A stretch of DNA of 64,000 nt from Escherichia phage REP5. Position numbers and translations under genes: made by a program. Shown here in pieces: positions 7 through 54,329 of the stretch. The notes beneath the pieces are model-generated. The model saw only the letters and a list, made by a program, of their open reading frames with translations, ran no database searches and was not told where the DNA came from. Positions within the stretch are counted from its first letter, which is position 1. Every line of letters begins with the position of its first letter. The stretch is from sequence record OQ174504.1. One strand, written 5' to 3'.

Positions 7-81
7 GGTACAGGTGGAGGGAATTGAACCCATCGTCTTACTGATTAAGAGTCAGCCGCATAACCATTTTGCTACACCTGC
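7..81 (-). tRNA. tRNA, anticodon CUU by hand fold (Lys?)
   Basis: Reverse complement folds as cloverleaf: acceptor GCAGGTG/CACCTGT, T-arm GGTTCAATTCC, anticodon loop CUCUUAA, CCA encoded. Confidence 0.55.
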
Positions 82-88
82 ATTAATT

Positions 89-166
89 TGGTAGGAGACA
101 AGGGATTCGAACCCTCAAACATCTCGTTCTAAGCGAGATAGGTTTACCAATTACCGTCAATCTCCC
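89..166 (-). tRNA. tRNA, isotype unresolved (anticodon loop CUUAGAA, UAG?)
   Basis: Acceptor GGGAGAT/GTCTCCT, T-arm GAGGGTTCGAATCCCTT, CCA encoded; D-arm poorly paired by eye. Confidence 0.5.
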
Positions 167-421
167 ATTAAGTCTTTTTAGAGAACTTCTAAGAACCTAA
201 GCAACAAGGTTCCACAACAAGCTGTAATAACCTTAGAAGCCCTCTAAAAAGACCTAAAAAGGTCTTTGCATAGTCTTGTTTAATCCGGTGACTAGAACCT
301 TTGGAGAGCTTGATATTATCTCTTCTCCGTGACACCTACTAGGTGTTTTATCAATGTGTACAACAATACACGCGGTATACCAAAGCAACATCCGAATGAA
401 GCTTGGCTTTAAATCTTATTA

Positions 422-508
422 GGCGGTAAGTAAAGGAGTCGAACCCTCACCGTATCTCTACAGTGGCAACTGTTTTCAAGACAGTTTGGCTACCATTAGC
501 CGCTACCT
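422..508 (-). tRNA. tRNA with long variable arm, anticodon UGA (Ser?)
   Basis: Anticodon arm ACTGT-CUUGAAA-ACAGT resembles tRNA-Ser; T-loop TTCGACT; acceptor pairing imperfect. Confidence 0.5.
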
Positions 509-524
509 ACCCCTAATAAGACTT

Positions 525-607
525 TGGCATGGGACGGAGGAGTTGAACCCCTTTGAAACGGTGTTGGAAGCCGTTGCTCATGCCTTAGAGTCTTAACATC
601 GTCCCAT
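525..607 (-). tRNA. tRNA-like element, atypical anticodon arm (9-nt loop), isotype unresolved
   Basis: Acceptor ATGGGAC/GTCCCAT plus CCA, T-arm GGGGTTCAACTCC; stem AACGG/CCGTT encloses a 9-nt loop. Confidence 0.4.
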
Positions 608-749
608 ACTATAATTCGAAGCTTACCGTATTATCTCAACACTGTAAAGCCCCTTCTCAGATTATTTACATGTTCTGGAAAACATGAGATACAGACCACC
701 TCCCTACAGGAAGACCCGCTTAGGTCGTCTAAGTAATCTGCTAACTATT

Positions 750-826
750 TGGCACACCCTACAGGATTCGAACCTGTAACTCAATGATTAGAAGTCATTT
801 GCTCTGTCCAGTTGAACTAAGGGTGC
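750..826 (-). tRNA. tRNA-Arg (anticodon UCU)
   Basis: Acceptor GCACCCT/AGGGTGT, anticodon arm AATGA-CUUCUAA-TCATT, T-arm ACAGGTTCGAATCCTGT, CCA encoded. Confidence 0.6.
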
Positions 827-1073
827 ATTAATCTTTAAAGACTCTCTTAGAAAGCCCTTAAAGATGCCCACCTTATTAATCATACCGTGGGCTAGTACGC
901 CAAATTCTTTGATGAGGGATTGGAAGACCTCACTGGTGTTTAGCCTATCAAGCTACTGCCAGAAAAACATTGTCGTTTGCATTTATTTTAAATTTGCAAA
1001 ATAGACGCTACGCAACGAAAACTAAGGTTACTATAAAGTGGTCACATCTCAGTGTCAACAACTTTATTGAAAT

Positions 1074-1149
1074 TGGTACTGTGAGAAGGATTCGAACCTT
1101 CTGCCTTTCGGTTATCAGCCGAATGCACATCCATATGTGCTTTCACAGC
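1074..1149 (-). tRNA. tRNA-Ile (anticodon GAU)
   Basis: Acceptor GCTGTGA/TCACAGT, D-stem GCAC/GTGC, anticodon arm TTCGG-CUGAUAA-CCGAA, T-arm GAAGGTTCGAATCCTTC. Confidence 0.6.
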
Positions 1150-1151
1150 TT

Positions 1152-1229
1152 TGGAGGTTCAGATGGGAATCGAACCCACATTCATAGGGCTTATGAGACC
1201 CTTGCATTACCTTATCTGCGACTGAACCA
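1152..1229 (-). tRNA. tRNA with CAU anticodon (Met or Ile2)
   Basis: Acceptor GGTTCAG/CTGAACC, anticodon arm AGGGT-CUCAUAA-GCCCT with three G-C pairs, T-arm GTGGGTTCGATTCCCAT. Confidence 0.55.
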
Positions 1230-1232
1230 TTT

Positions 1233-1308
1233 TGGTAGAAGTGGAGGGATTCGAACCCATCGCCTGTCAGATTAAAAGTCTGCCGCATCACCATTCTGCT
1301 ACACTTCC
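1233..1308 (-). tRNA. tRNA-Lys (anticodon UUU)
   Basis: Acceptor GGAAGTG/CACTTCT, anticodon loop CUUUUAA, T-arm GGGTTCGAATCCC, CCA encoded. Confidence 0.55.
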
Positions 1309-1312
1309 ATTA

Positions 1313-1456
1313 AATTATCTTTGTAGATAAGCTACCCAGACTTGCTTAAGGTCTGTAGCGATGTGCCTTGTTGGGTTTAAATCTAGAATTTACCCTTTCA
1401 CCCTTTGTGGTCGCATACTCACAGGTAAGCTTAATAACTTATCTACAAAGATAATT
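1313..1456 (-). ncRNA. Candidate structured small RNA or processing element (19-bp inverted repeat enclosing 106 nt)
   Basis: aattatctttgtagataag at 1313-1331 is the exact reverse complement of 1438-1456; lies between tRNA genes. Confidence 0.3.
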
Positions 1457-1739
1457 ACCAGACCGTTGTTTATCATCTTAAGTGCTACCATTACACCAAC
1501 TCGACATCTGCCGAGTGAAGGAATCGAACCTTCACCTTTTCTTTACCGGAGAAATAGATTGTTTAAGTTTTGCTGTAAACGGTCTTCTGTAAATTTGTTG
1601 AGCCAGACCAAGTTTTAAATTTTTCAAAATTAAATTGGCTTGAAATTTTCATACGTTCTTGCTGTATTTGGTCTTCTGCTCCTTTAAAGAATACTCGTAA
1701 GAACTCTTTAAGGGAGGGGCTAAATAGCCCTCTCAAAAT

Positions 1740-1825
1740 TGGCGGCTACGATGAGACTTGAACTCACATCATCTCCCAATATCCTTTTACGTGGGAGTAT
1801 TTTAACCAAATTAAACTACATAACC
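1740..1825 (-). tRNA. tRNA-like element, 86 nt, anticodon arm unresolved
   Basis: Acceptor GGTTATG/CGTAGCC with G-U pairs, T-arm GTGAGTTCAAGTCTCAT, CCA encoded; central stem CTCCCA/TGGGAG encloses 11-nt loop. Confidence 0.4.
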
Positions 1826-1830
1826 TTTAT

Positions 1831-1918
1831 TGGTGTGCCGTGTAGGAGTCGAACCTACCGAGTCTCAATGACAAGGGATTTACAGTCCCCACCGCTACCA
1901 TCTACGGGATAACGACAC
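1831..1918 (-). tRNA. tRNA-Tyr (anticodon GUA), long variable arm
   Basis: Acceptor GTGTCGT/ACGGCAC, anticodon arm GGGGA-CUGUAAA-TCCCT, variable arm, T-arm TAGGTTCGACTCCTA, CCA encoded. Confidence 0.6.
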
Positions 1919-1929
1919 ATTTAAATTTG

Positions 1930-2003
1930 CGGTTAGTCAGGGATTCGAACCCTGTGCCATTCGCTTAACAGGCGACCGCACATACCTTATGTGCTTCCTA
2001 ACC
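1930..2003 (-). tRNA. tRNA-Asn (anticodon GUU)
   Basis: Acceptor GGTTAG/CTAACC, D-stem GCAC/GTGC, anticodon loop CUGUUAA, T-arm CAGGGTTCGAATCCCTG; CCA not encoded. Confidence 0.55.
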
Positions 2004-2087
2004 ATATTTAGTATTACCAGACCGTATCTTTCAATTTTTTCCGCTAAAAATTTGATAAGTGTTGCTGTAAACGGTCTTCTGTAAAAT

Positions 2088-2163
2088 TGGAGGCGGGTGC
2101 AGGAGTCGAACCTGCCGATACCATGCTAATGAGACATGTGAGACGCCCTTTCTCTATACCCGC
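2088..2163 (-). tRNA. tRNA with CAU anticodon (Met/fMet or Ile2), 1:72 mismatch
   Basis: Anticodon arm CATGT-CUCAUUA-GCATG, T-arm GCAGGTTCGACTCCTGC, acceptor GCGGGT/ACCCGC with unpaired first position. Confidence 0.5.
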
Positions 2164-2255
2164 AATTCTTAATGACCAGACCAAATCTCTTCTTTGTCCG
2201 ATTTACCTTCAGATGAATAAGATTAAGTTTGCTGTAATTGGTCTTCTGTCAAAAC

Positions 2256-2333
2256 TGGCGTTCCAGAAGGGATTTGAACCCTCAGATATCCACTTTGAAA
2301 GAGTGGTGACTATACCATTTTGTCTACTGGAAC
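2256..2333 (-). tRNA. tRNA-Glu (anticodon UUC)
   Basis: Acceptor GTTCCAG/CTGGAAC, anticodon arm CCACT-CUUUCAA-AGTGG, T-arm GAGGGTTCAAATCCCTT, CCA encoded. Confidence 0.6.
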
Positions 2334-2340
2334 ATTAATT

Positions 2341-2420
2341 TGGTCTCCGTTGAAGGATTTGAACCCTCGACCCCTTGCTCCCAAAGCAAGTGCTGCTAAA
2401 CCAAACTGAGCTAAACGGAG
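2341..2420 (-). tRNA. tRNA-Pro (anticodon UGG)
   Basis: Anticodon arm CTTGC-UUUGGGA-GCAAG, T-arm GAGGGTTCAAATCCTTC, acceptor CTCCGTT/AACGGAG, CCA encoded. Confidence 0.6.
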
Positions 2421-2585: not shown

Positions 2586-4001
2586 TTACCAGATGTAACG
2601 GTCAATCGTTACTGCTTTGAGCATTACGCTGATTGGGTCAAACTTCTCACCACCAAGCAGAGCTTTTAAAGTGGCTGGAGAGAACCCTGATACCATTGCT
2701 ACACCGTTATCCTTAACAGATACTTCGCAAGTACCATTACGGTTTGCTAAGTACCAGAATACCAGTTGTGGCATCTCATATCCAGCTTTTTTGTACTTAC
2801 TCTGAATTGCTTCAAAGTTTGTACGACCGTTAGCTCCATCAACCTGATTGAACTCCATATCGGAGAAGATGATAAGCTTACTTGGCATATCTTTCTGAGT
2901 CAAGTTGTTTCTCTTACCTGTCTCAAGGATGCGGTCAAAAGCTGCTTGTAAGTTAGTTGAACCATATTCAACATGTCGCATCACCTGACGGTGACGGTTC
3001 TTTAAATCGCCACTCAGTTCGATGAAATGAGGGTTTGTTGAATAAACCATTAACTCGTTCTTAAAGCAACCTGTATTGCGTTCTGCTACATACAAGGCAA
3101 GTGATACACCAATATCAAGGGCAGTAATTGAGCCAAAATTCACCCAAGACATTGAACTTGAAACATCAGACATACATAGAATGTTTTCACCCTCTGCCAT
3201 CCAGTTTGGTAGTGCTTTCCACTGCTCATTAGCAACATCTGCATTACCATACTTAACAGATTTAATCACATCGTATGGATAAACAGCACCAGCGTTAATC
3301 TTAGTCTCACCCTTTGATAAGGACTCGATGTAAGCTTTGTAACGCTCTCCATCTTTACGGTTAAACAGTTTTTGGTAACGTGCAGCAGCAAGTGAAGGAA
3401 TCTTACTGTAGTCAATATTACCAAACTCATTAGCAGAGATTTTTTGCTCAACTGTATCAGATAGTGCAGACAATAGTGTGCGGTACTCTTTCTCACTCAA
3501 GTTGGCAAACTTGCAGAAACGTTTTACAAACTGCTTATGACGTGGTTTGACTCGTGGTAACCACTTAGCTGCTAAACCTGCTGTTGCAGGGTCTAGTAAA
3601 GCTGCTTCTAAATGTTTGAAGGCATCTGTCTCGAAACGAGTACCTACAAAGATTTTGAAGTCATCAAAACGACCAAGTTCTGCAATCTTATCCATAATGC
3701 GAAGAACCTGCGTAGGCTCTAAAACTTTATCTTCAATCGCTTGAAGTAAAACAGTTCGGAAAGCTTTACGCTCACCCATACCCTCTCGTACATCTCGCAT
3801 ATGCAGTAAAATACGAACTGCAACATCAACATCCTCATGCAAAGCTTTGTAGAACAAGTCTGGTAAGATTTCTACATTGCTACGGCTAGAACCAGCAGCT
3901 TTGTAAAAGTCCACAAGAGCAGACATTGATGAAGTATGGTTTACAGCACCATTTTCAGTTCGACCTGCATGAAGGTGCGCATGTTTAAATAACTCGCTCA
4001 T
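2586..4001 (-). CDS. vWA-domain protein with MIDAS-like motif (possibly Ro60/TROVE-like or DUF2828-like)
   Basis: 471 aa ORF; DVSSS metal-ion-site motif followed by vWA-like strands; helical N-terminal half; co-oriented with downstream tRNA cluster. Confidence 0.6.
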   Translation of the reverse strand: MSELFKHAHLHAGRTENGAVNHTSSMSALVDFYKAAGSSRSNVEILPDLFYKALHEDVDVAVRILLHMRDVREGMGERKAFRTVLLQAIEDKVLEPTQVLRIMDKIAELGRFDDFKIFVGTRFETDAFKHLEAALLDPATAGLAAKWLPRVKPRHKQFVKRFCKFANLSEKEYRTLLSALSDTVEQKISANEFGNIDYSKIPSLAAARYQKLFNRKDGERYKAYIESLSKGETKINAGAVYPYDVIKSVKYGNADVANEQWKALPNWMAEGENILCMSDVSSSMSWVNFGSITALDIGVSLALYVAERNTGCFKNELMVYSTNPHFIELSGDLKNRHRQVMRHVEYGSTNLQAAFDRILETGKRNNLTQKDMPSKLIIFSDMEFNQVDGANGRTNFEAIQSKYKKAGYEMPQLVFWYLANRNGTCEVSVKDNGVAMVSGFSPATLKALLGGEKFDPISVMLKAVTIDRYIW

Positions 4002-35178: not shown

Positions 35179-36045
35179 TTACATAGAAACCCTATCCTTA
35201 ATTTCTGCCATCTTAGCGTCATTCATTCGAGACTGACCTTTAATTTTTGTGAATGACAAGTACCCACACACCCTGTTAATCACAGAGATATCATGTGAAT
35301 GGCAAACCTCACATTCTTCAACATCAGCCTTTGGTCTGTGACCACAATGTTCACAGATTGCTAAGTCAAAGTTAAGTCCTTGATAAAAACCTTTCAACAT
35401 CCCTCTTGTAATACAACTTTTAAGTGCTGATAAGTTTTCTGGATTAGCTACCCTTACATACTGGATTCTTCCGCCTCTACAGATATGGAAGAAGGGTTCT
35501 TCTAAGTCCTGCTTCTCAAATGGTGTAATATCTGCTGCAACATTCATATGGAAACTGTTTGTAAAGTATTCCTTATCAGAAACACCTTTGATAACACCAA
35601 ACATATCTCTGAACTGTTTTAGCTGAGTCCCACAAAGTGATTCTGCTGGAGTGCCATAGACTGCATATAAGAAACCGTCTTCATTTTTAAACTCTTCAGT
35701 TTTCATGTTGATGTATTCCAGAACATCGTATGCAAAACTACAGCTTCCAACTTCATGAAGTCGTTTACCTTCAGCAAGAACAGATAGCTCATCAAGCGCA
35801 GTAACCCCAAAAGAAGCTGTGAAGGACTTCACAATATCCCAACCAACCCTGTCAGTAGGCTTCTTAGTTCCTTTATACAGACCACCTTGTGTAAATGCAA
35901 GAGGGTTAGAACTTGCTGGCATATTAGCAATCATTTCGTAACGTTTCTTGTGGAAGTTGCGAATCATCTCTAGGTACTTATCAAGCTCTTTCCAGAAATC
36001 TAAACCATTCTCTTTAGAGTACTGGTAAATCATTGGCAAGTTCAA
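35179..36045 (-). CDS. nrdD: Anaerobic ribonucleoside-triphosphate reductase, C-terminal exon
   Basis: Zn ribbon CEHCGHRP..CEVCH and glycyl-radical motif RVCGYL; true exon start lies upstream of the first Met. Confidence 0.75.
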   Translation of the reverse strand: MNLPMIYQYSKENGLDFWKELDKYLEMIRNFHKKRYEMIANMPASSNPLAFTQGGLYKGTKKPTDRVGWDIVKSFTASFGVTALDELSVLAEGKRLHEVGSCSFAYDVLEYINMKTEEFKNEDGFLYAVYGTPAESLCGTQLKQFRDMFGVIKGVSDKEYFTNSFHMNVAADITPFEKQDLEEPFFHICRGGRIQYVRVANPENLSALKSCITRGMLKGFYQGLNFDLAICEHCGHRPKADVEECEVCHSHDISVINRVCGYLSFTKIKGQSRMNDAKMAEIKDRVSM

Positions 36046-36439
36046 AGATACAGCACCAATGTTGGCACGACCTACATAAAACTCTTCACCATATTCGTTA
36101 TGGTATGGTGATAAAAATGCTCTACACTTGTTGTTCAGGTAAGTTCGCTAAGCTTACCCCGCTTTATTCAAGCTGCTTACTGTCGCCAGTAAGTCCAGAC
36201 TATATCTTCTACTTATTTCTAAGTAGCGTACCATTTCGAGTCGCTTGACCCTACACCGCTACATTCATCACGGTTAGTCGTTCGGCATTTAGATGTATTC
36301 AAACTCATATTCGAAGTTATTTGGCATGTAAGACCCCTATGTTGTATAGTTTCTTACATCGTACATCATTTAGCACAGGATTGTCTACATCTGTAGAGTT
36401 TCCCTGTTTAGGCACGTTTTAGATGAGCTATAGAGCTTG
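36046..36439 (-). other. Putative group I intron in nrdD (boundaries approximate)
   Basis: About 394 nt between the two nrdD ORFs; on minus strand P-like CAGGGAAAC, Q-like AATCCTGTGC, R-like GAACGACTAAC and S-like GATATAGTC occur in canonical order. Confidence 0.5.
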
Positions 36440-37639
36440 TTAACCCATCGGCGAAATAACCTTGCCAGAACGCTCAAAAGCTTCTGCTACAGCACCATGA
36501 CCAGATACACTTAAGAAGTCTGGATACATTGCTTTAGAACAACACTCAATAGCTTTACTGTACAGGTGGCCTTGACAGATATTCTCATTGTGTCTCTTCT
36601 GGTCATAAATATAAACCAGTTTAGGGAATACAACAGGCTTCTTGCTCTTACCTTGTCCATTCATACGAACATCTAGGAGAGTACTTGCAATCATGTATTG
36701 CAGTCGGTTGTCTTCATTAGACATGTCTGAGTCAAGTAACCCAAATGTCAAAGTTGTGAATGCAAAATCCCCACGACTACAAGGTACAGTATTTAGTTTC
36801 ATTTCAAGTGACTGGAAACCTTGAGTTAGCTCAATCTGTAGCTGCTCCATGACATAATTGTGGTGATGTTCTTTAGGAATACCATAAGATGCTGCTTTCT
36901 CAGCATGATAGCGTAGAGACTTCTTAGCATACGGTACAAGTACCTTATCAATCTCTGCTAAAGTAAAGCCACCAAATTGCTGTGCAGTTGCTGAAAGTAC
37001 TACGTCACCAATAACCTGTAAGGCTGATAGTACAGATTTAGGTTCACAGTATTCAATGCCAGACATTTCAAAGCCACCTTTCAGTACTTTACCAATGTCA
37101 AACAGGCAACAGTTGATACCACCAAAAATTAGGTCTCTTAAATCATGGATATAGATAAACCCTTTTTCAATGGCTTCCAATTCCTCTGGTGTTAAATGGT
37201 ACTGTTTAAAGATTTCTTTAGTCAGGTAACCACGGATAATTGAACCTTTCGTAGAAATTAAACTGCTGTCAAAGTTAGCATTTTCACGGTCACCTAAGAA
37301 GAGTGTATCTTTAGTCTTCTGGTAGAGTTCATCCCAGTTTTGAGCAACCTCTTTACGGTAATTTCTATATGTTGAGTAAGACTCATAAATCTCGTGATTG
37401 ACTTCTGCCAAAGCACCCTCAACAATACTGTGAATATCATTTACTGAAACGAGTAAATTATTCTGCTTAGTAGATTTTACCAGAATCCTCATAAATGCTG
37501 ACTCAAGAGCTTGAGTAACATCTGGTGGAAGCTCTTTATAACCAACTCTGTTAGCTGACTTTGTGACTGCTGCTAAAACTTTTTTGATATCAGGTTCTTC
37601 AAGTGAGCCATTCTTTTTAATAATCTGTACTTTGTTCAT
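36440..37639 (-). CDS. nrdD: Anaerobic ribonucleoside-triphosphate reductase, N-terminal exon
   Basis: 399 aa ORF with ATP-cone-like N-terminus; continues into 35179-36045 after the intervening sequence. Confidence 0.75.
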   Translation of the reverse strand: MNKVQIIKKNGSLEEPDIKKVLAAVTKSANRVGYKELPPDVTQALESAFMRILVKSTKQNNLLVSVNDIHSIVEGALAEVNHEIYESYSTYRNYRKEVAQNWDELYQKTKDTLFLGDRENANFDSSLISTKGSIIRGYLTKEIFKQYHLTPEELEAIEKGFIYIHDLRDLIFGGINCCLFDIGKVLKGGFEMSGIEYCEPKSVLSALQVIGDVVLSATAQQFGGFTLAEIDKVLVPYAKKSLRYHAEKAASYGIPKEHHHNYVMEQLQIELTQGFQSLEMKLNTVPCSRGDFAFTTLTFGLLDSDMSNEDNRLQYMIASTLLDVRMNGQGKSKKPVVFPKLVYIYDQKRHNENICQGHLYSKAIECCSKAMYPDFLSVSGHGAVAEAFERSGKVISPMG

Positions 37640-50567: not shown

Positions 50568-50824
50568 GTAAGCCTCTTTTAAGTAACTATTAAGTTTTAA
50601 TCTTTTATCTTAACGTATTCTATACGTTATACTTTAAAGCTTTTTAAAAGCTATTAAATAATCTTTTAAGAGTTTTAAAGTATCTGTATAGTTAAACTGT
50701 TAAGTAACCTTTTAAGTAAAAACCCACTTCGCAAAGATTAACACCTTGTCAAGTGCATTGTCAACTTGCTTTTTATAATTTTTTGCAGTAATGTATGAGG
50801 TTAATGATTTTAGAGGGAGTAAAA

Positions 50825-52967
50825 ATGGAAAACGTAGATTTTAAAAACTTACATTTAGTTGGTGATACAGAAACTGATGGTTTACTCCTTGAGTTCACTA
50901 AAGTGCACGTAATGGCTTTCGCAGACTATAAATCTGACGATGAAGAGCCACCTGTATGGGTCTTTACAGATGAGCCTATCCTCGGTCACAAGTACACTAA
51001 GTACATCAAGGGTGGTTTACGTGAAGGTGTTGAGTTTGCGTTAAAGGCAAAACGACTTTGCATCCATAACGGCCTCGGTTATGACTGGTGGGTTTTCAAT
51101 CACATTGCACCTGATTTATGGAACTTTGATAATCCAAAGTGTAAACCGTGGAGTAATTTCTTTCAGGATTCTCTTATCCAGTCTCGTGTTCAGTGGATGG
51201 ATAGACCAACTCCAAAGGGTTATAAAGGTGCTCATGGTTTGGCTGCATGGGGTGCTCGTGTTGGTGTTCGTAAACCAGAGATTGAACATTGGGGTGTGTG
51301 GAATGCAGAAATCTTCACTCGTGTTGTAGAAGATATCCGTATTAACGCCAAAACTAAACGGGCACTTGATAATGAATATCTCAAGCTTAAGAAGTGTGGC
51401 ATAGATACTTATGAAACCTACATGCGAGCTAAAGAAACATCTTTCTGGATGAGTCAACAAGCTATCAATGGCTGGAAAGCTGATAAAGAGCTTATGGAGT
51501 TCCATGTAAAGGAACTTGACAAGTTGACTAATGAGCTTGCTTCAGAAGTTGAACCACACCTTCCACCAACTATTAAGACCAAAGGTAAAGTCACTGGAGA
51601 AGAATTTGCAAAAGCTTGGAATGAGTATGTTGAAGCATTCGGTCATGCAGATGGACTGAAGAGGATTACCAAGTACCCTAAGACAAAGTATCGTCAGCAG
51701 GTACGTAATGGTGAGATGCAGACATATGAAATCAAGCCATTTGGTAAGCCAACTACAAAGATTTTTAACATTGAAAAAAGGAATTGCTATACACCAACCA
51801 ACTCTGTAACTGGTGAAGAGTACAAGGAAGGTTTTGTAGCAATGAAGGATGCTCGTGCAATTTGCAATGAGTTGAACGCAAAGATTGGTAAGAAATGCAA
51901 AGACTGGAAGCCAGTAAAAACAGTCAAAACTGTGAAGTACTATAACAGCCACGTTGTTAACCACTTTGAACTTGAGTCAAGTCGCTACACGGGTTTGATT
52001 GATGCACCATATACACCAATTGAGTTTGAAGTTTCTCGTATGACTCAGGTAGCAGTTGTTAAAGACTACTTGAAATCAGTTGGTTGGATTCCAGATGACT
52101 GGAACTACAAGAAAGACTCAGACGGTCGCCCTGTCAAAGTTTGTCGTTTCAAAGACAATAAAAAGATGATTACAAAGCATCCTAAGTGGCAGGAGATGGT
52201 AGAGCGGTGTGGTTTGAGCTATGTTGAGCATGAAGGTGTACAGTACATTGAGCATAACTGGTCTGTGAAGAAGTACACAGATTTGCTTGAGCCTTGCTTA
52301 ATCCGTACTTCACCAAAGCTTACTGAGTCATCTTATGATACGATTGAAGGTGAACTTGGACAGAAGATTGCTAAGTACTATACTTTGATGCACAGACGCA
52401 GAACTATTGAGAACTCAAAGGATGATGAAAAAGGTTGGTTGAACCAGATTCGTCCTGATGGTCGCCTTAGTGCTGGCGCAATGGTGTTTGGTACTTCAAC
52501 TGGACGCATGACACAATATGGCATTGTAAACGTACCGTCTGGTGCTGCTGTCTATGGAGCACCGATGAGGGAAGTGTGGATTTGCGAGGAAGGGACTAAT
52601 ATCGTTTCAGTTGACCAGAACTCAGCCCAGCTAGTTCTCCTTTGTAACTTTATGGGTGATAAAGAGTTCACTAAAGCGGTAACTGAAGGTAAAGAGTCAG
52701 TAGAATTTACTAAGCAAGATGATGGGAGATATTATTGCAAACATCTTGACAAGTATCTTAACCCAGAAACTGACAAGTATCTGCGTTATGATGCTGAAAA
52801 TGACCTCTATGAAGTCTACACAGGTACTGATGCACATACACTGAATAGTATTTACTTTGGTCTGAACAAGGAAGAAGATATTGTTCGTTGTAGGGAGACA
52901 CAGGATGAGGAACTTCTCCACGAGATTACAAAAGGTCGTAAGAAAGCCAAAAATGGCATTTATGCGT
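50825..52967 (+). CDS. Family A DNA polymerase, exon 1 (3' boundary approximate)
   Basis: Start at MENVDFKN after RBS gagggag; 3'-5' exonuclease motif VGDTETDGL; motif A-like VSVDQNSAQLVLL; motif B begins RKKAKNGIYA. Confidence 0.8.
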
Positions 52968-53235
52968 CAGTGGCGCATGTAAAACGTTGTGAATTGCTGG
53001 AAGCCTAAGTCTGAGAAGATACGGTAATCAGCAGCGAAGCCTCTTAAGAGGAACGTTCAGAGACTATCGAAAAGCATACTTAACGTATGAACTGAGTAGA
53101 GTAGGGTGGTAAGCTAATGACCATCCCCAAGTGCAACGGTAGCACCACTGCTACGTGATATAGTCCGACACTCCGTAGAAATGCGGAGAAGTTCATAAGA
53201 GAACTGGTACACCTTGCGAGTGTATTGACCAGATG
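52968..53235 (+). other. Group I intron in DNA polymerase gene (boundaries approximate)
   Basis: P-like AATTGCTGGAAG 52992-53003, Q-like AATCAGCAGC 53026-53035, R-like GTTCAGAGACTA 53055-53066, S-like GATATAGTCC 53157-53166; interrupts motif B. Confidence 0.65.
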
Positions 53236-53792
53236 TATTGTTCGGGGCTGGAGACGAGAAGTTTGCAAAAACTATCAAGGCATCATCTACGGAAGAAGGT
53301 GCATTGACTAAACAAACTTACTATATGCGTCTGCCAAAGATTAAGAAGTTACTTGATAGCTTAGAAGCCGATTTTAAGGCGTCTAAAAAGGCTCTGGAAG
53401 AGGTTTTTGGGAAGAATTCTTCAATTGCTAAAGGTGGTTATATCAGGGTCGCTGGAGCATGGATATGGTGCAAATCTCCACATAAACTGCTGAACTACCT
53501 TCTGATGAGTTCTGAAGCACAGATTCAGAATGAGGCCATCAACCTAGCAGCAAGAAAAGCCTGTGAAGATGGTCTGACAAAACTGAATGCTCGAAAACCA
53601 GCTATCGGAGCAAGGTTACTTCTGGCATATCACGATGAAAATAGTTGGGAATGCCCAGAGAATATGACACATGATATGAAAGCAATTGCTGACTGGATGT
53701 ATGGACAAGCTTCAAAAAACTTAGGTTTGAGGAAAGAAACACTTGTAACTGGTACAGCAAAGGTTGGTAAGAGCTGGTATGAGGTACACTGA
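53236..53792 (+). CDS. Family A DNA polymerase, exon 2
   Basis: Continues motif B (LFGAGDEKFAKTI) and carries motif C (LLAYHDEN). Confidence 0.8.
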
Positions 53793-53795
53793 TTG

Positions 53796-54329
53796 ATGGA
53801 TTTTATTTCACAAAAACGTTTAAAGGAGCTACTACACTATGACCCCGAAACAGGGGTCTTTACTTGGCTTCGTAGAGAAGGTAAATCAAGAGCTGTTAGT
53901 GTTTTTAACAGTAACTATGCAGGAAAGGTAGCAGGTAATGTTCAGACAGATTCAACTGGTCATAAACAGATTAGTATCTATTTTGACAAGAAAGCACATA
54001 AAGCACACAGACTCGCATGGCTTTATGTATATGGTAAGATGCCAAAAGGTATCATTGACCATATCAACGGAGACTCTCTTGACAACAGGATTGCAAACTT
54101 AAGGGAAGCAGATGACTTCCAAAGTGCTTGGAATAAAGGTAAACTAGCCACCAATAAATCTGGGTACAAGGGTGTAAGCCTTAAGAAGAAGTCTGGTAAG
54201 TGGGTCGCACAGATAAGTTATAAAGGTAAGAAGATGTTTTTAGGTTACCATGACACGCCTGAAGAAGCCCATAAAGCTTACTGTGAAGCTGCTATGAAAC
54301 TCCACGGAGAGTTTGCAAAACTAAGTTGA
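53796..54329 (+). CDS. HNH endonuclease with AP2 DNA-binding domain
   Basis: HINGDSLDNRIANLR HNH motif; GYKGVSLKKKSGKWVAQISYKGKKMFLGYHDTPEEAHKAY AP2-like. Confidence 0.75.
   Translation: MDFISQKRLKELLHYDPETGVFTWLRREGKSRAVSVFNSNYAGKVAGNVQTDSTGHKQISIYFDKKAHKAHRLAWLYVYGKMPKGIIDHINGDSLDNRIANLREADDFQSAWNKGKLATNKSGYKGVSLKKKSGKWVAQISYKGKKMFLGYHDTPEEAHKAYCEAAMKLHGEFAKLS

Follow-up and report, generated by a model that had tools for sequence, protein, structure and literature searches.

The window, a 64,000-nt stretch of Escherichia phage REP5 (OQ174504.1), is Felixounavirus DNA and is 100% identical to Escherichia phage REP6. Following one another on its plus strand are exon 1 of a family A DNA polymerase gene (50825..52967), a 268-nt ORF-less, IA-like group I intron (52968..53235), polymerase exon 2 (53236..53792), and a free-standing HNH-AP2 homing-endonuclease gene (53796..54329). 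Exon 1 was delimited by the ORF list, the REP6 annotation ("DNA polymerase") and, at the junction, intron-less alleles. Its last base, T52967, is the first base of a split leucine codon. Translation may start at 50795, 50804, or 50825, the last of which is preceded by a GAGGGAG ribosome-binding site, and the Pfam DNA_pol_A match of this exon is weak. Exon 2, which reads UA UUG UUC ... through to the TGA stop at 53790-53792, covers positions 218-381 of the DNA_pol_A profile and aligns with T7 DNA polymerase.

A first-pass annotation made from the sequence alone described a polymerase ORF that is broken within motif B and resumes after about 270 nt. The gap is exactly 268 nt (52968-53235), and the start coordinate given in that annotation, 52968, is the first base of the intron. 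The ORF at 50795..53008 enters the gap and ends at an in-frame TAA (53006..53008, plus strand), 39 nt into the intron, and the reading frame resumes as ...LFGAGDEK. This stop codon halts translation of unspliced RNA ahead of the ribozyme core. Comparison with intron-less alleles, a check that the annotation had proposed, fixed both boundaries: excision of 52968-53235 is exactly in frame and yields ...KKAKNGIYALLFGAGDEK..., equal in length to the intron-less alleles of sister phages, and the protein encoded by the joined exons aligns collinearly with that of phage bumzen, which lacks the intron, position by position over the junction, and with T7 motif B. The spliced junction would read ...TATGCGT|TATTGTTC... 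in the cDNA and GIYALLFGAGDEK in the peptide. When RKKAKNGIYALLFGAGDEK is aligned to RDNAKTFIYGFLYGAGDEK of T7 DNA polymerase, the split codon is equivalent to F528, in the O-helix (motif B). Based on the T7 alignment and textbook residue equivalences, we take the insertion site to be at about codon 764 in E. coli numbering.

A covariance-model scan for group I introns, also proposed in the earlier annotation, matched Rfam RF00028 with 59.2 bits (gathering score, 50; E = 1.8e-12), the only non-tRNA family matched between 52968 and 54329. The P, Q, R, and S elements that had been reported in canonical order are all present: P is GAATTGCTGGAAG (52991-53003), Q is TAATCAGCAGCG (53025-53036), R is GTTCAGAGACTA (53055-53066), and S is GTGATATAGTCC (53155-53166). 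The proposed P/Q pairing forms P4 (UGCUGG/UCAGCA, 6 bp), and the proposed R/S pairing forms P7 (GACUA/UAGUC, 5 bp). These elements and pairings are far beyond chance.

The helices that can be drawn are P1, P3-P10, P7.1/P7.2, and P9.1/P9.2, all on the plus strand and with every pair standard. In P1 (52962..52978), exon bases AUGCGU (52962-52967) form six standard pairs with the internal guide GCGCAU (52973-52978), with the 5' splice site at the U52967.G52973 wobble. The 5' strand of P3 and the P4-P6 domain, delimited by fold and covariation, occupy 52985..53056. They comprise the P3 5' strand (52985-89), P4 (52995-53000/53028-33), P5 (53004-05/53023-24), P5a (53009-12/53017-20, with a GAGA loop), P6 (53034-35/53055-56), and P6a (53040-43/53048-51, with a UUAA loop). 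The catalytic core, delimited in the same way, lies at 53062..53165 and contains P7 (53062-66/53161-65), which forms a pseudoknot with P3, along with P7.1 (53075-79/53085-89) and P7.2 (53104-10/53120-26), both with compensatory changes, the P3 3' strand (53134-38), and P8 (53139-44/53149-54). The 3' domain (53171..53235) consists of P9 (53171-76/53183-88), which shows covariation, P9.1 (53190-94/53201-05) and P9.2 (53207-12/53220-25), both drawn from the REP5 sequence alone, and the terminal G53235, the last intron base, at a boundary fixed independently by the intron-less alleles. The first five nucleotides of exon 2, UAUUG, can pair with intron nucleotides 1-5, CAGUG, to form P10. P2 is absent, as the spacer between P1 and P3 is only 6 nt (GUAAAA), and a close relative in phage ZQ2 also lacks it. 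Since P7.1/P7.2 are present and P2 is missing, the subgroup is IA-like rather than formal IA2.

A covariance model (R1) of the intron core recovered 98 related introns from phage contigs. In an alignment of these, all 47 nested core pairs, spread over 10 helices, show changes on both sides. Standard pairing was found in 94% of pairing cells compared with 57% in shuffles and at most 44% in slid controls, and the covariation score was 0.48 compared with 0.11 in shuffles and at most 0.073 in slid controls; because the alignment was fitted to the structure of the model, pairing is somewhat inflated. The covariation in these 98 introns does not extend to P7, P9.1, P9.2, or P10. At P7, standard pairs fill 90% of alignment cells with hardly any variation, so covariation speaks neither for nor against this helix. 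The Rfam score, exact excision, U.G wobble, terminal G, and covariation together uphold the earlier claim of a group I intron in motif B.

GenBank gives REP6 and most of its relatives two "DNA polymerase" CDSs, and a second ORF can start at TTG 53238. Taken at face value, these annotations describe a decayed, non-splicing remnant and a polymerase made from two separate polypeptides, one per exon ORF. However, the protein would then be split midway through the O-helix, between residues equivalent to T7 Y526 and Y530, and TTG 53238 lacks a Shine-Dalgarno sequence in the 20 nt before it (GAGTGTATTGACCAGATGTA). The ribozyme core is also intact, scoring above the Rfam gathering threshold with all pairs kept, and variants within the genus retain pairing: a C-G pair in P8 becomes U-A, the C-G pair at the base of P6a becomes U-A, and L5a stays GNRA. 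We therefore regard a two-polypeptide polymerase as extremely improbable. Among GenBank records of phage isolates, at least 44 have the 267-268-nt intron form, which means that a functional polymerase must come from the interrupted gene.

We consider it very likely that the locus holds a single spliced polymerase gene with a 268-nt ORF-less group I intron, and that the HNH-AP2 gene is a separate, independent neighbor. From the observed boundaries, fold, and covariation, we infer the chemistry of splicing as follows. The intron in the pre-mRNA would fold into an IA-type ribozyme, and free guanosine would attack after U52967, at the P1 wobble pair. The exon end so released would then attack after G53235, with P10 holding the 3' exon, and the ligated exons would read ...AKNGIYALLFGAGDEK... 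and encode one 900-aa polymerase. Ribosomes on unspliced RNA would stop at the TAA 39 nt into the intron.

We compared the states of this site across the genus, with the counts being samples from 259 records together with 35 directly read loci. The site is empty, or it holds the 268-nt ORF-less intron, a form of about 800 nt with an ORF, or a 311-nt ORF-deleted form. A form with a frameshifted ORF is also found among the stages at this locus. In the ~800-nt form, the ORF lies inside the P6a loop, between intron nucleotides 77 and 80, matches Pfam Endonuclease_7 (an Endo VII-type endonuclease), and is intact (160-161 aa) in 9 of the 10 ORF-containing loci. The window holds no copy of this ORF elsewhere. 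What had appeared to be a second intron copy in phage Si3 (locus L083, two R1 hits) proved to be the two halves of one polymerase intron, split by the ORF. Among 120 IMG/VR loci, no intron was found at exactly the same site in other phage groups; polymerase homologs in these loci have their interruptions close to positions equivalent to sites 674 and 881.

The P6a stem bears on which intron form came first. A simple deletion within the extended P6a found in the ORF form (UCUCUGUUAGGA...UCCUAACAGAGA) could not give the short P6a of the 268-nt form (CCUC-UUAA-GAGG), and the known deletion derivative, EC106 (311 nt), retains the extended stem. These observations favor an ancestral 268-nt form that was never invaded, with the Endo VII-type gene having invaded P6a to give the ~800-nt form. 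Alternatively, the 268-nt form would derive from an ORF-containing one by loss of the ORF, and an older deletion followed by a later compensating change could produce it. Both forms have the same exon flanks and a core that is 95-99% identical, such that the direction is unreadable from the sequences. We give an ancestral 268-nt form slightly less than even chances, and this question concerns the origin of the intron only.

Intron-bearing alleles have the flanks GCCAAAAATGGCATTTATGCGT|TATTGTTCGGGGCTGG in common, in polymerase backgrounds that are only ~80% identical. The shared flank spans about 40 nt and is unlike both kinds of empty site, the common one of which (wV8 and the L009 type) reads ...TATGCAC|TGCTGTTCGGTGCA..., and the intron core is 95-99% identical between these alleles. 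Judged from the sequences, such a flank in diverged backgrounds is a signature of homing. The obvious candidate driver is the Endo VII-type gene within the introns of sister phages: from the allele states and shared flanks observed, we infer that the form with an intact endonuclease in P6a would owe its spread to homing accompanied by short co-conversion tracts. The REP5 intron has no endonuclease gene and would therefore not be able to home by itself. The ORF-less intron is 97-99% identical where the adjacent exon 1 is only 87-93% identical, which hints that the ORF-less form may itself move; if it does, a nuclease would be needed in trans.

The HNH-AP2 gene encodes a 177-aa protein with matches to Pfam HNH_3 (55.3 bits, E = 5e-15) and AP2 (47.9 bits, E = 1.6e-12), both exceeding the curated cut-offs, and with an intact DH...N...N motif. 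Its ATG at 53796 follows the polymerase TGA at 53790-53792 by 3 nt, as first described, and an alternative TTG start at 53793 directly abuts the stop. The two domains and a presence/absence polymorphism in the genus bear out the identification of a free-standing HNH-AP2 endonuclease. The gene is absent in phages such as JH2 and VpaE1 and in loci L009-L014, among others, and other phages have either this gene or a different allele in its place; across different phages, this one spot is taken by four HNH-AP2 alleles that are 40-53% identical. The gene start always lies -19 to +10 nt from the polymerase stop. We found no HNH-AP2 paralogs elsewhere in the window.

The first-pass annotation had called the placement of this gene a typical homing arrangement, a claim that is not established. 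The same HNH gene lies beside intron-less polymerases (in bumzen, HY02, and others). The REP5 allele adjoins an intron-less polymerase in about 22 records among the matches listed, and nine of the 15 directly read loci with an empty site have an HNH gene downstream. Since it also adjoins intron-less polymerases, the HNH gene appears from these arrangements to be separable from the intron. It is probably a separate homing-endonuclease gene in a hot spot right after the polymerase stop, co-transcribed with the polymerase. It would not be a dedicated part of the intron, and at most it may aid the intron, 557 bp away, via co-conversion.

A functional link, in the form of trans or collaborative homing, is nonetheless possible from the distribution of the two elements. 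Among loci read directly, a downstream HNH gene accompanies 8/8 ORF-less introns and 1/1 ORF-deleted intron compared with 3/10 ORF-containing introns (one-sided Fisher P ~0.004 for ORF-less versus ORF-containing, ignoring relatedness), and the ORF-less intron and the REP5 HNH allele occur together in 32 further records among the matches listed. This association is confounded by linkage (557 bp) and relatedness. Two simpler accounts of it were rejected. Mutual exclusion of the intron ORF and the downstream HNH gene had been suggested by JH2, VpaE1, BPS15Q2, and EC6, which have no HNH gene, but Si3, PC79-13, and FM4b have both. A pure lineage effect does not hold for HMD-P8 (ORF-less intron, HNH gene), which shares its exon 1 sublineage with SP4, a phage whose intron has the ORF and which lacks the HNH gene.

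Under collaborative homing, HNH-AP2 would cut intron-less alleles at or near the motif B site or within co-conversion distance of it; the intron would protect its own genome or ride along, and intron and endonuclease gene would be co-inherited. The placement of an ORF-less intron 557 bp upstream of a free-standing endonuclease gene, the counts given above, and the greater conservation of the ORF-less intron relative to its exon 1 are consistent with this model. In addition, recombination breakpoints cluster in exon 2, and in intron-less genomes with the REP5 HNH allele, many synonymous positions of the insertion site are unlike those of the common empty site. The concept is also documented elsewhere (PMC3984707, PMC2988022, PMC6083498). 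However, the variant insertion site tracks polymerase lineage rather than HNH type, with locus L018 having the same site and another HNH type, and other HNH types coexist with the unaltered common empty site (L007, L008, and L017). The presence of the gene beside intron-less polymerases also argues against the model, as does the lack of any HNH gene in 7/10 ORF-containing intron loci. Furthermore, HNH-AP2 genes are ubiquitous in phages (3,569 records matched), and tight linkage can explain the association. We consider collaborative homing unlikely here. Less likely still is the more specific proposal that HNH-AP2, perhaps in each of its four alleles, recognizes the motif B region of intron-less alleles and forms a collaborative-homing pair with the intron.

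A full-text literature search found no description of the Felixounavirus intron beyond two passing mentions. Fang et al. (2018) termed the Endo VII-motif proteins of JH2, EC6, and FSL SP-010 "intron-encoded" (PMC6083498), and phage SPJ41 has been listed with "two introns" (PMC9951933). Each is a one-sentence mention that gives no boundaries, structure, ORF-less form, or HNH neighborhood. These four phages have the insertion site and exon flanks seen in the window and a core that is 95-99% identical, and SPJ41 has the same ORF-less form together with an HNH gene.

The intron of the T7-like phage Berlin also interrupts motif B of a family A polymerase. Its insertion point lies 11 nt farther upstream, behind base 2 of the F524 codon rather than base 1 of the F528-equivalent codon. 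Unlike the window intron, it carries an endonuclease ORF in its P6 region, and this endonuclease is 50% identical to that of the ORF-containing Felixounavirus form. The P9.1 hairpin, AGTTCATAAGAGAAC, is identical in the two introns, but the ribozyme core of Berlin is not close, as R1 scores it at only 9 bits.

Other phage polymerase introns lie at site 674 in E. coli Pol I numbering (SPO1, SP82, Bastille, and Pf-WMP3), at 676 (phiL7), and at 881 (PhiI and W31) (PMC3428280). They are self-splicing IA-type introns in conserved motifs of family A polymerases and often carry HNH genes. The window intron differs in its insertion site, presumably about codon 764, and in encoding no endonuclease, and its Felixounavirus sister forms carry an Endo VII-type rather than an I-HmuI-type HNH enzyme. 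Collaborative or trans homing has been described for the S-PM2 psbA intron with F-CphI, for polymerase introns of T7-like phages that have a free-standing endonuclease, and for T4 mobE with the nrdB intron (PMC3984707, PMC2988022, PMC6083498). In these cases, as here, an ORF-less or defunct-ORF intron adjoins a free-standing homing-endonuclease gene; in contrast, the endonuclease gene here can also adjoin an intron-less polymerase allele, and three other alleles take its place at the same spot. With the T4 td, nrdB, and nrdD (sunY) introns, the window intron shares an IA-type core, P7.1/P7.2, the P6a-loop ORF site, an early in-frame stop, and a host gene of DNA metabolism, but it lacks P2 and its host gene differs. 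A further intron in the window interrupts nrdD.

An intron in a phage polymerase gene is a well-known kind of element, one noted in passing for Felixounavirus, and this finding leaves current understanding unchanged. It does bear on annotation: two "DNA polymerase" genes are entered for REP6 and in dozens of related GenBank records where there is very likely one spliced gene, and the boundaries 52967|52968 and 53235|53236 allow a correct joined annotation. It also adds another motif B insertion site, 11 nt from that of Berlin, to those of phage family A polymerase introns. The proximity of the Berlin site and the homologous endonuclease are in line with the view that intron location is set by the specificity of endonucleases for conserved DNA. 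The genus displays the full homing cycle, stage by stage, at a single locus and is a convenient natural system. If the HNH-AP2 alleles do recognize the motif B region, the locus would offer every stage of the intron and endonuclease life cycle (empty site, ORF-less intron with free-standing endonuclease, ORF-invaded, frameshifted ORF, and ORF-deleted) in easily grown E. coli and Salmonella phages.

Across 50795-54329, the window shares 100% identity with the Escherichia phages REP6 and REP7, and its identity to many Felix O1-like phages (Ounavirinae, Felixounavirus) is 90-97%; this region matches 259 phage records. The REP6 annotation divides the polymerase into two "DNA polymerase" CDSs, places an "HNH endonuclease" after them, and has no intron. 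Two GenBank records named "Campylobacter phage A132/A126" (MG065664.1 and MG065668.1) show 96.8% identity to the polymerase region, intron and HNH gene included; their host label seems doubtful. The window also carries a cluster of 12 tRNA genes (9-2420, minus strand; Rfam), which is usual in Felix O1-like phages.

The polymerase ORF is broken and then resumes, as the first-pass annotation had proposed: the first ORF enters the gap and ends at TAA 53006-53008, and the second reads (L)FGAGDEK... and ends at TGA 53790-53792. When T52967 is joined to T53236, the product reads ...GRKKAKNGIYALLFGAGDEKFAKT... and runs collinear with ...GRKKSKNGIYALLFGAGDEKFAKT... in the uninterrupted, 906-aa polymerase of phage bumzen; we therefore place the intron at 52968-53235 (268 nt), where it splits a Leu codon (T/TA). 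Exon 1 ends in a U, whose partner in P1 (AUGCGU/GCGCAU) is G52973, and the final intron base is G53235. A P10 pairing is possible between the first five bases of exon 2 (UAUUG) and of the intron (CAGUG). When compared with solved structures using phmmer, RKKAKNGIYALLFGAGDEK aligned to RDNAKTFIYGFLYGAGDEK of T7 DNA polymerase. The split codon in this alignment is the equivalent of T7 F528, an O-helix residue lying between Y526 and Y530, which puts the insertion inside motif B, again as proposed. T7 K522, Y526, and Y530 correspond to E. coli Pol I K758, F762, and Y766, and through these equivalences we take the insertion site to be near codon 764 in E. coli numbering. Published polymerase intron sites are at 674, 676, and 881 (PMC3428280).

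The Rfam group I model RF00028 matches 52905-53188 with 59.2 bits (gathering score, 50; E = 1.8e-12), confirming a group I intron in the gap. The P, Q, R, and S elements seen at first pass are all present, and their pairings are P4 (UGCUGG/UCAGCA) and P7 (GACUA/UAGUC). Our hand-drawn model contains P1, P3, P4, P5, P5a (GAGA loop), P6, P6a (UUAA loop), P7, P7.1, P7.2, P8, P9, P9.1, P9.2, and P10, with every pair standard; P2 is absent because only six bases lie between P1 and P3.

A covariance model of the core (R1; 52979-53190, 47 nested pairs), built from five Felixounavirus variants, yielded 98 matches in diverse phage contigs sharing the 18-mer GTTCAGAGACTATCGAAA. In the alignment of these matches, which was fitted to the model's own structure, standard pairs filled 94.0% of cells, compared with 57.2% in shuffles, and both-side changes occurred in all 47 pairs. 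The covariation score was 0.480, compared with 0.112 in shuffles (0 of 500 reached 0.480) and at most 0.073 for slid partners. P7 paired in 90% of cells and scarcely varied. Within the genus, the fold is kept through changes in P8 (GUAGCA/UGCUAC to GUAGUA/UACUAC) and in the foot pair of P6a (C-G to U-A), and the L5a loop is always GNRA (GAGA, GUAA, or GGAA). The closest relative outside the genus is an intron in the RNA polymerase gene of N4-like phage ZQ2. The human-gut phage contigs of crAss-like phage cr3_1 (locus L029, 1450-1657) and locus L028 (1497-1705) also hold introns of this family (R1, 80-89 bits), one of which carries an ORF and interrupts a DNA polymerase gene.

The window has a second ORF-less group I intron in nrdD (anaerobic ribonucleotide reductase; 35179-37639, minus strand), which is split into ORFs 36440-37639 and 35179-36045; RF00028 matches at 36176-36557 with 53.6 bits. 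Since R1 does not match this intron, it is of a different subtype. The nrdD gene of other Felixounaviruses is split by a homing-endonuclease gene (PMC4837284).

Matches covering most of the polymerase intron occur in 96 records, and the site is empty in the remainder of the 259. At least 44 of the 96 have the ORF-less form (267-268 nt), roughly 40 have a 780-811-nt form, and ~10-15 have a 311-nt form. In the long form, the P6a loop holds the extra DNA, which falls between bases 77 and 80 of the intron and encodes a protein of 160-161 aa (Pfam Endonuclease_7). Of 10 loci, 9 have an intact ORF; in VpaE1 (L002, 3501-4280) it is frameshifted. The 311-nt form (EC106; L022, 2501-2811) keeps the extended P6a stem and the ORF leader and trailer, with the ORF missing. 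The VpaE1 frameshift and the EC106-type deletion represent stages in the decay of the intron's endonuclease gene. The 268-nt form has a short P6a of different make and is no simple deletion product of the long form. Two SUSP2-like intron-less loci (L015 and L016) have the intron-type 5' flank ...TATGCGT/T... (junction near 3998), a perfect P1 target, which could have been left behind when an intron was precisely lost or could be pre-adapted; other empty sites have GCAC or GCCC at the P1-target position.

Felix O1 has the empty site, and its genome paper accordingly found no introns (PMC3185647). Fang et al. (2018) applied the term "intron-encoded" to Endo VII-motif proteins in JH2, EC6, and FSL SP-010 (PMC6083498), and the SPJ41 paper gives "two introns" among non-coding RNAs (PMC9951933). 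Our full-text literature search found no description of the boundaries, structure, ORF-less form, or neighbourhood of the Felixounavirus polymerase intron. Outside the genus, the T7-like Yersinia phage Berlin has the nearest element, also a polymerase intron (L160, ~2314-2988). It too interrupts motif B, 11 nt upstream of the window's site and just past the second base of the F524 codon; its Endo VII-type endonuclease is 50% identical to the Felixounavirus intron endonuclease, and its P9.1 hairpin AGTTCATAAGAGAAC is identical to the window's, but the two ribozyme cores are not close.

Although the exons of REP6 are only ~80% identical to those of VpaE1 or JH2, they share the flanks ...AAAGCCAAAAATGGCATTTATGCGT/TATTGTTCGGGGCTGG..., within which the exon halves of P1 and P10 fall. 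Empty sites read ...AAGAGCAAAAATGGCATCTACGCCC/TGTTATTTGGAGCC... or ...AAAGCTAAGAATGGTATCTATGCAC/TGCTGTTCGGTGCA.... The intron core is 95-99% identical across polymerase backgrounds that are ~80% identical, and mismatch profiles reveal mosaic exons with breakpoints near the intron and within exon 2. Judged by these comparisons, the shared flanks and mosaic exons are what homing with short co-conversion tracts would be expected to produce. In fBSPA4 and tootiki (L020, L156) and BPS17L1 (L158), exon 2 switches abruptly between the two polymerase sequence types, ~60-100 and ~300 nt past the intron; the stretch from the intron to the HNH gene is where recombination breakpoints cluster.

Directly after the polymerase lies the HNH-AP2 gene (ATG 53796 to 54329, 177 aa; Pfam HNH_3, 5e-15, and AP2, 1.6e-12), whose protein family spans 3569 phage records. 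The first-pass annotation called this a typical homing arrangement; the gene is where it was described, but a functional tie to the intron is no more than possible. A synthetic query joining the two found the intron with the window's HNH allele in 32 records and the intron without this allele in many; the allele stands without the intron in ~22 records (7 of 60 sampled rows). These counts and the loci described below lead us to regard it as a homing-endonuclease gene that stands free in a hot spot and can be separated from the intron.

In loci read directly, counting genes whose start lies from -19 to +10 nt relative to the polymerase stop, a downstream HNH-AP2 gene accompanied the ORF-less intron in 8 of 8 loci, the ORF-deleted intron in 1 of 1, the ORF-containing intron in 3 of 10, and the empty site in 9 of 15. 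The contrast between 8/8 and 3/10 (one-sided Fisher, 165/43758 = 0.004, relatedness ignored) is suggestive. Systems in which a free-standing endonuclease is paired with an ORF-less intron go by the name of collaborative or trans homing (PMC3984707; PMC2988022; PMC6083498). Tight linkage (557 bp) can explain the contrast, as can an intron carried along by HNH-driven co-conversion. HNH genes at this site are of four types (loci L007, L008, L020, L021, and L157 among them), with proteins 40-53% identical that end in a common ~25-residue tail, DTPEEAHKAYCEAA.KLHGEFAKLS (window 54250-54329). Alleles are 92-99% identical over the final ~80 nt, and genomes that have no HNH gene lack the tail as well; it resembles a recombination arm that the alleles share for swapping. 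HNH types other than the window's coexist with the common unaltered empty site, and the bumzen-type variant site tracks polymerase lineage, not HNH type; there is therefore no positive sign that the HNH protein targets the insertion site. On this analysis, there is a modest chance that the intron and HNH-AP2 gene would represent a further example of collaborative homing.

The element itself is a real, ordinary group I intron, rightly spotted at first pass. Such introns have long been known in phage polymerase genes, with classic cases in the family A polymerases of SPO1, Bastille, Pf-WMP3, phiL7, and PhiI/W31 (PMC3428280; PMC11878797), and the window intron adds another.
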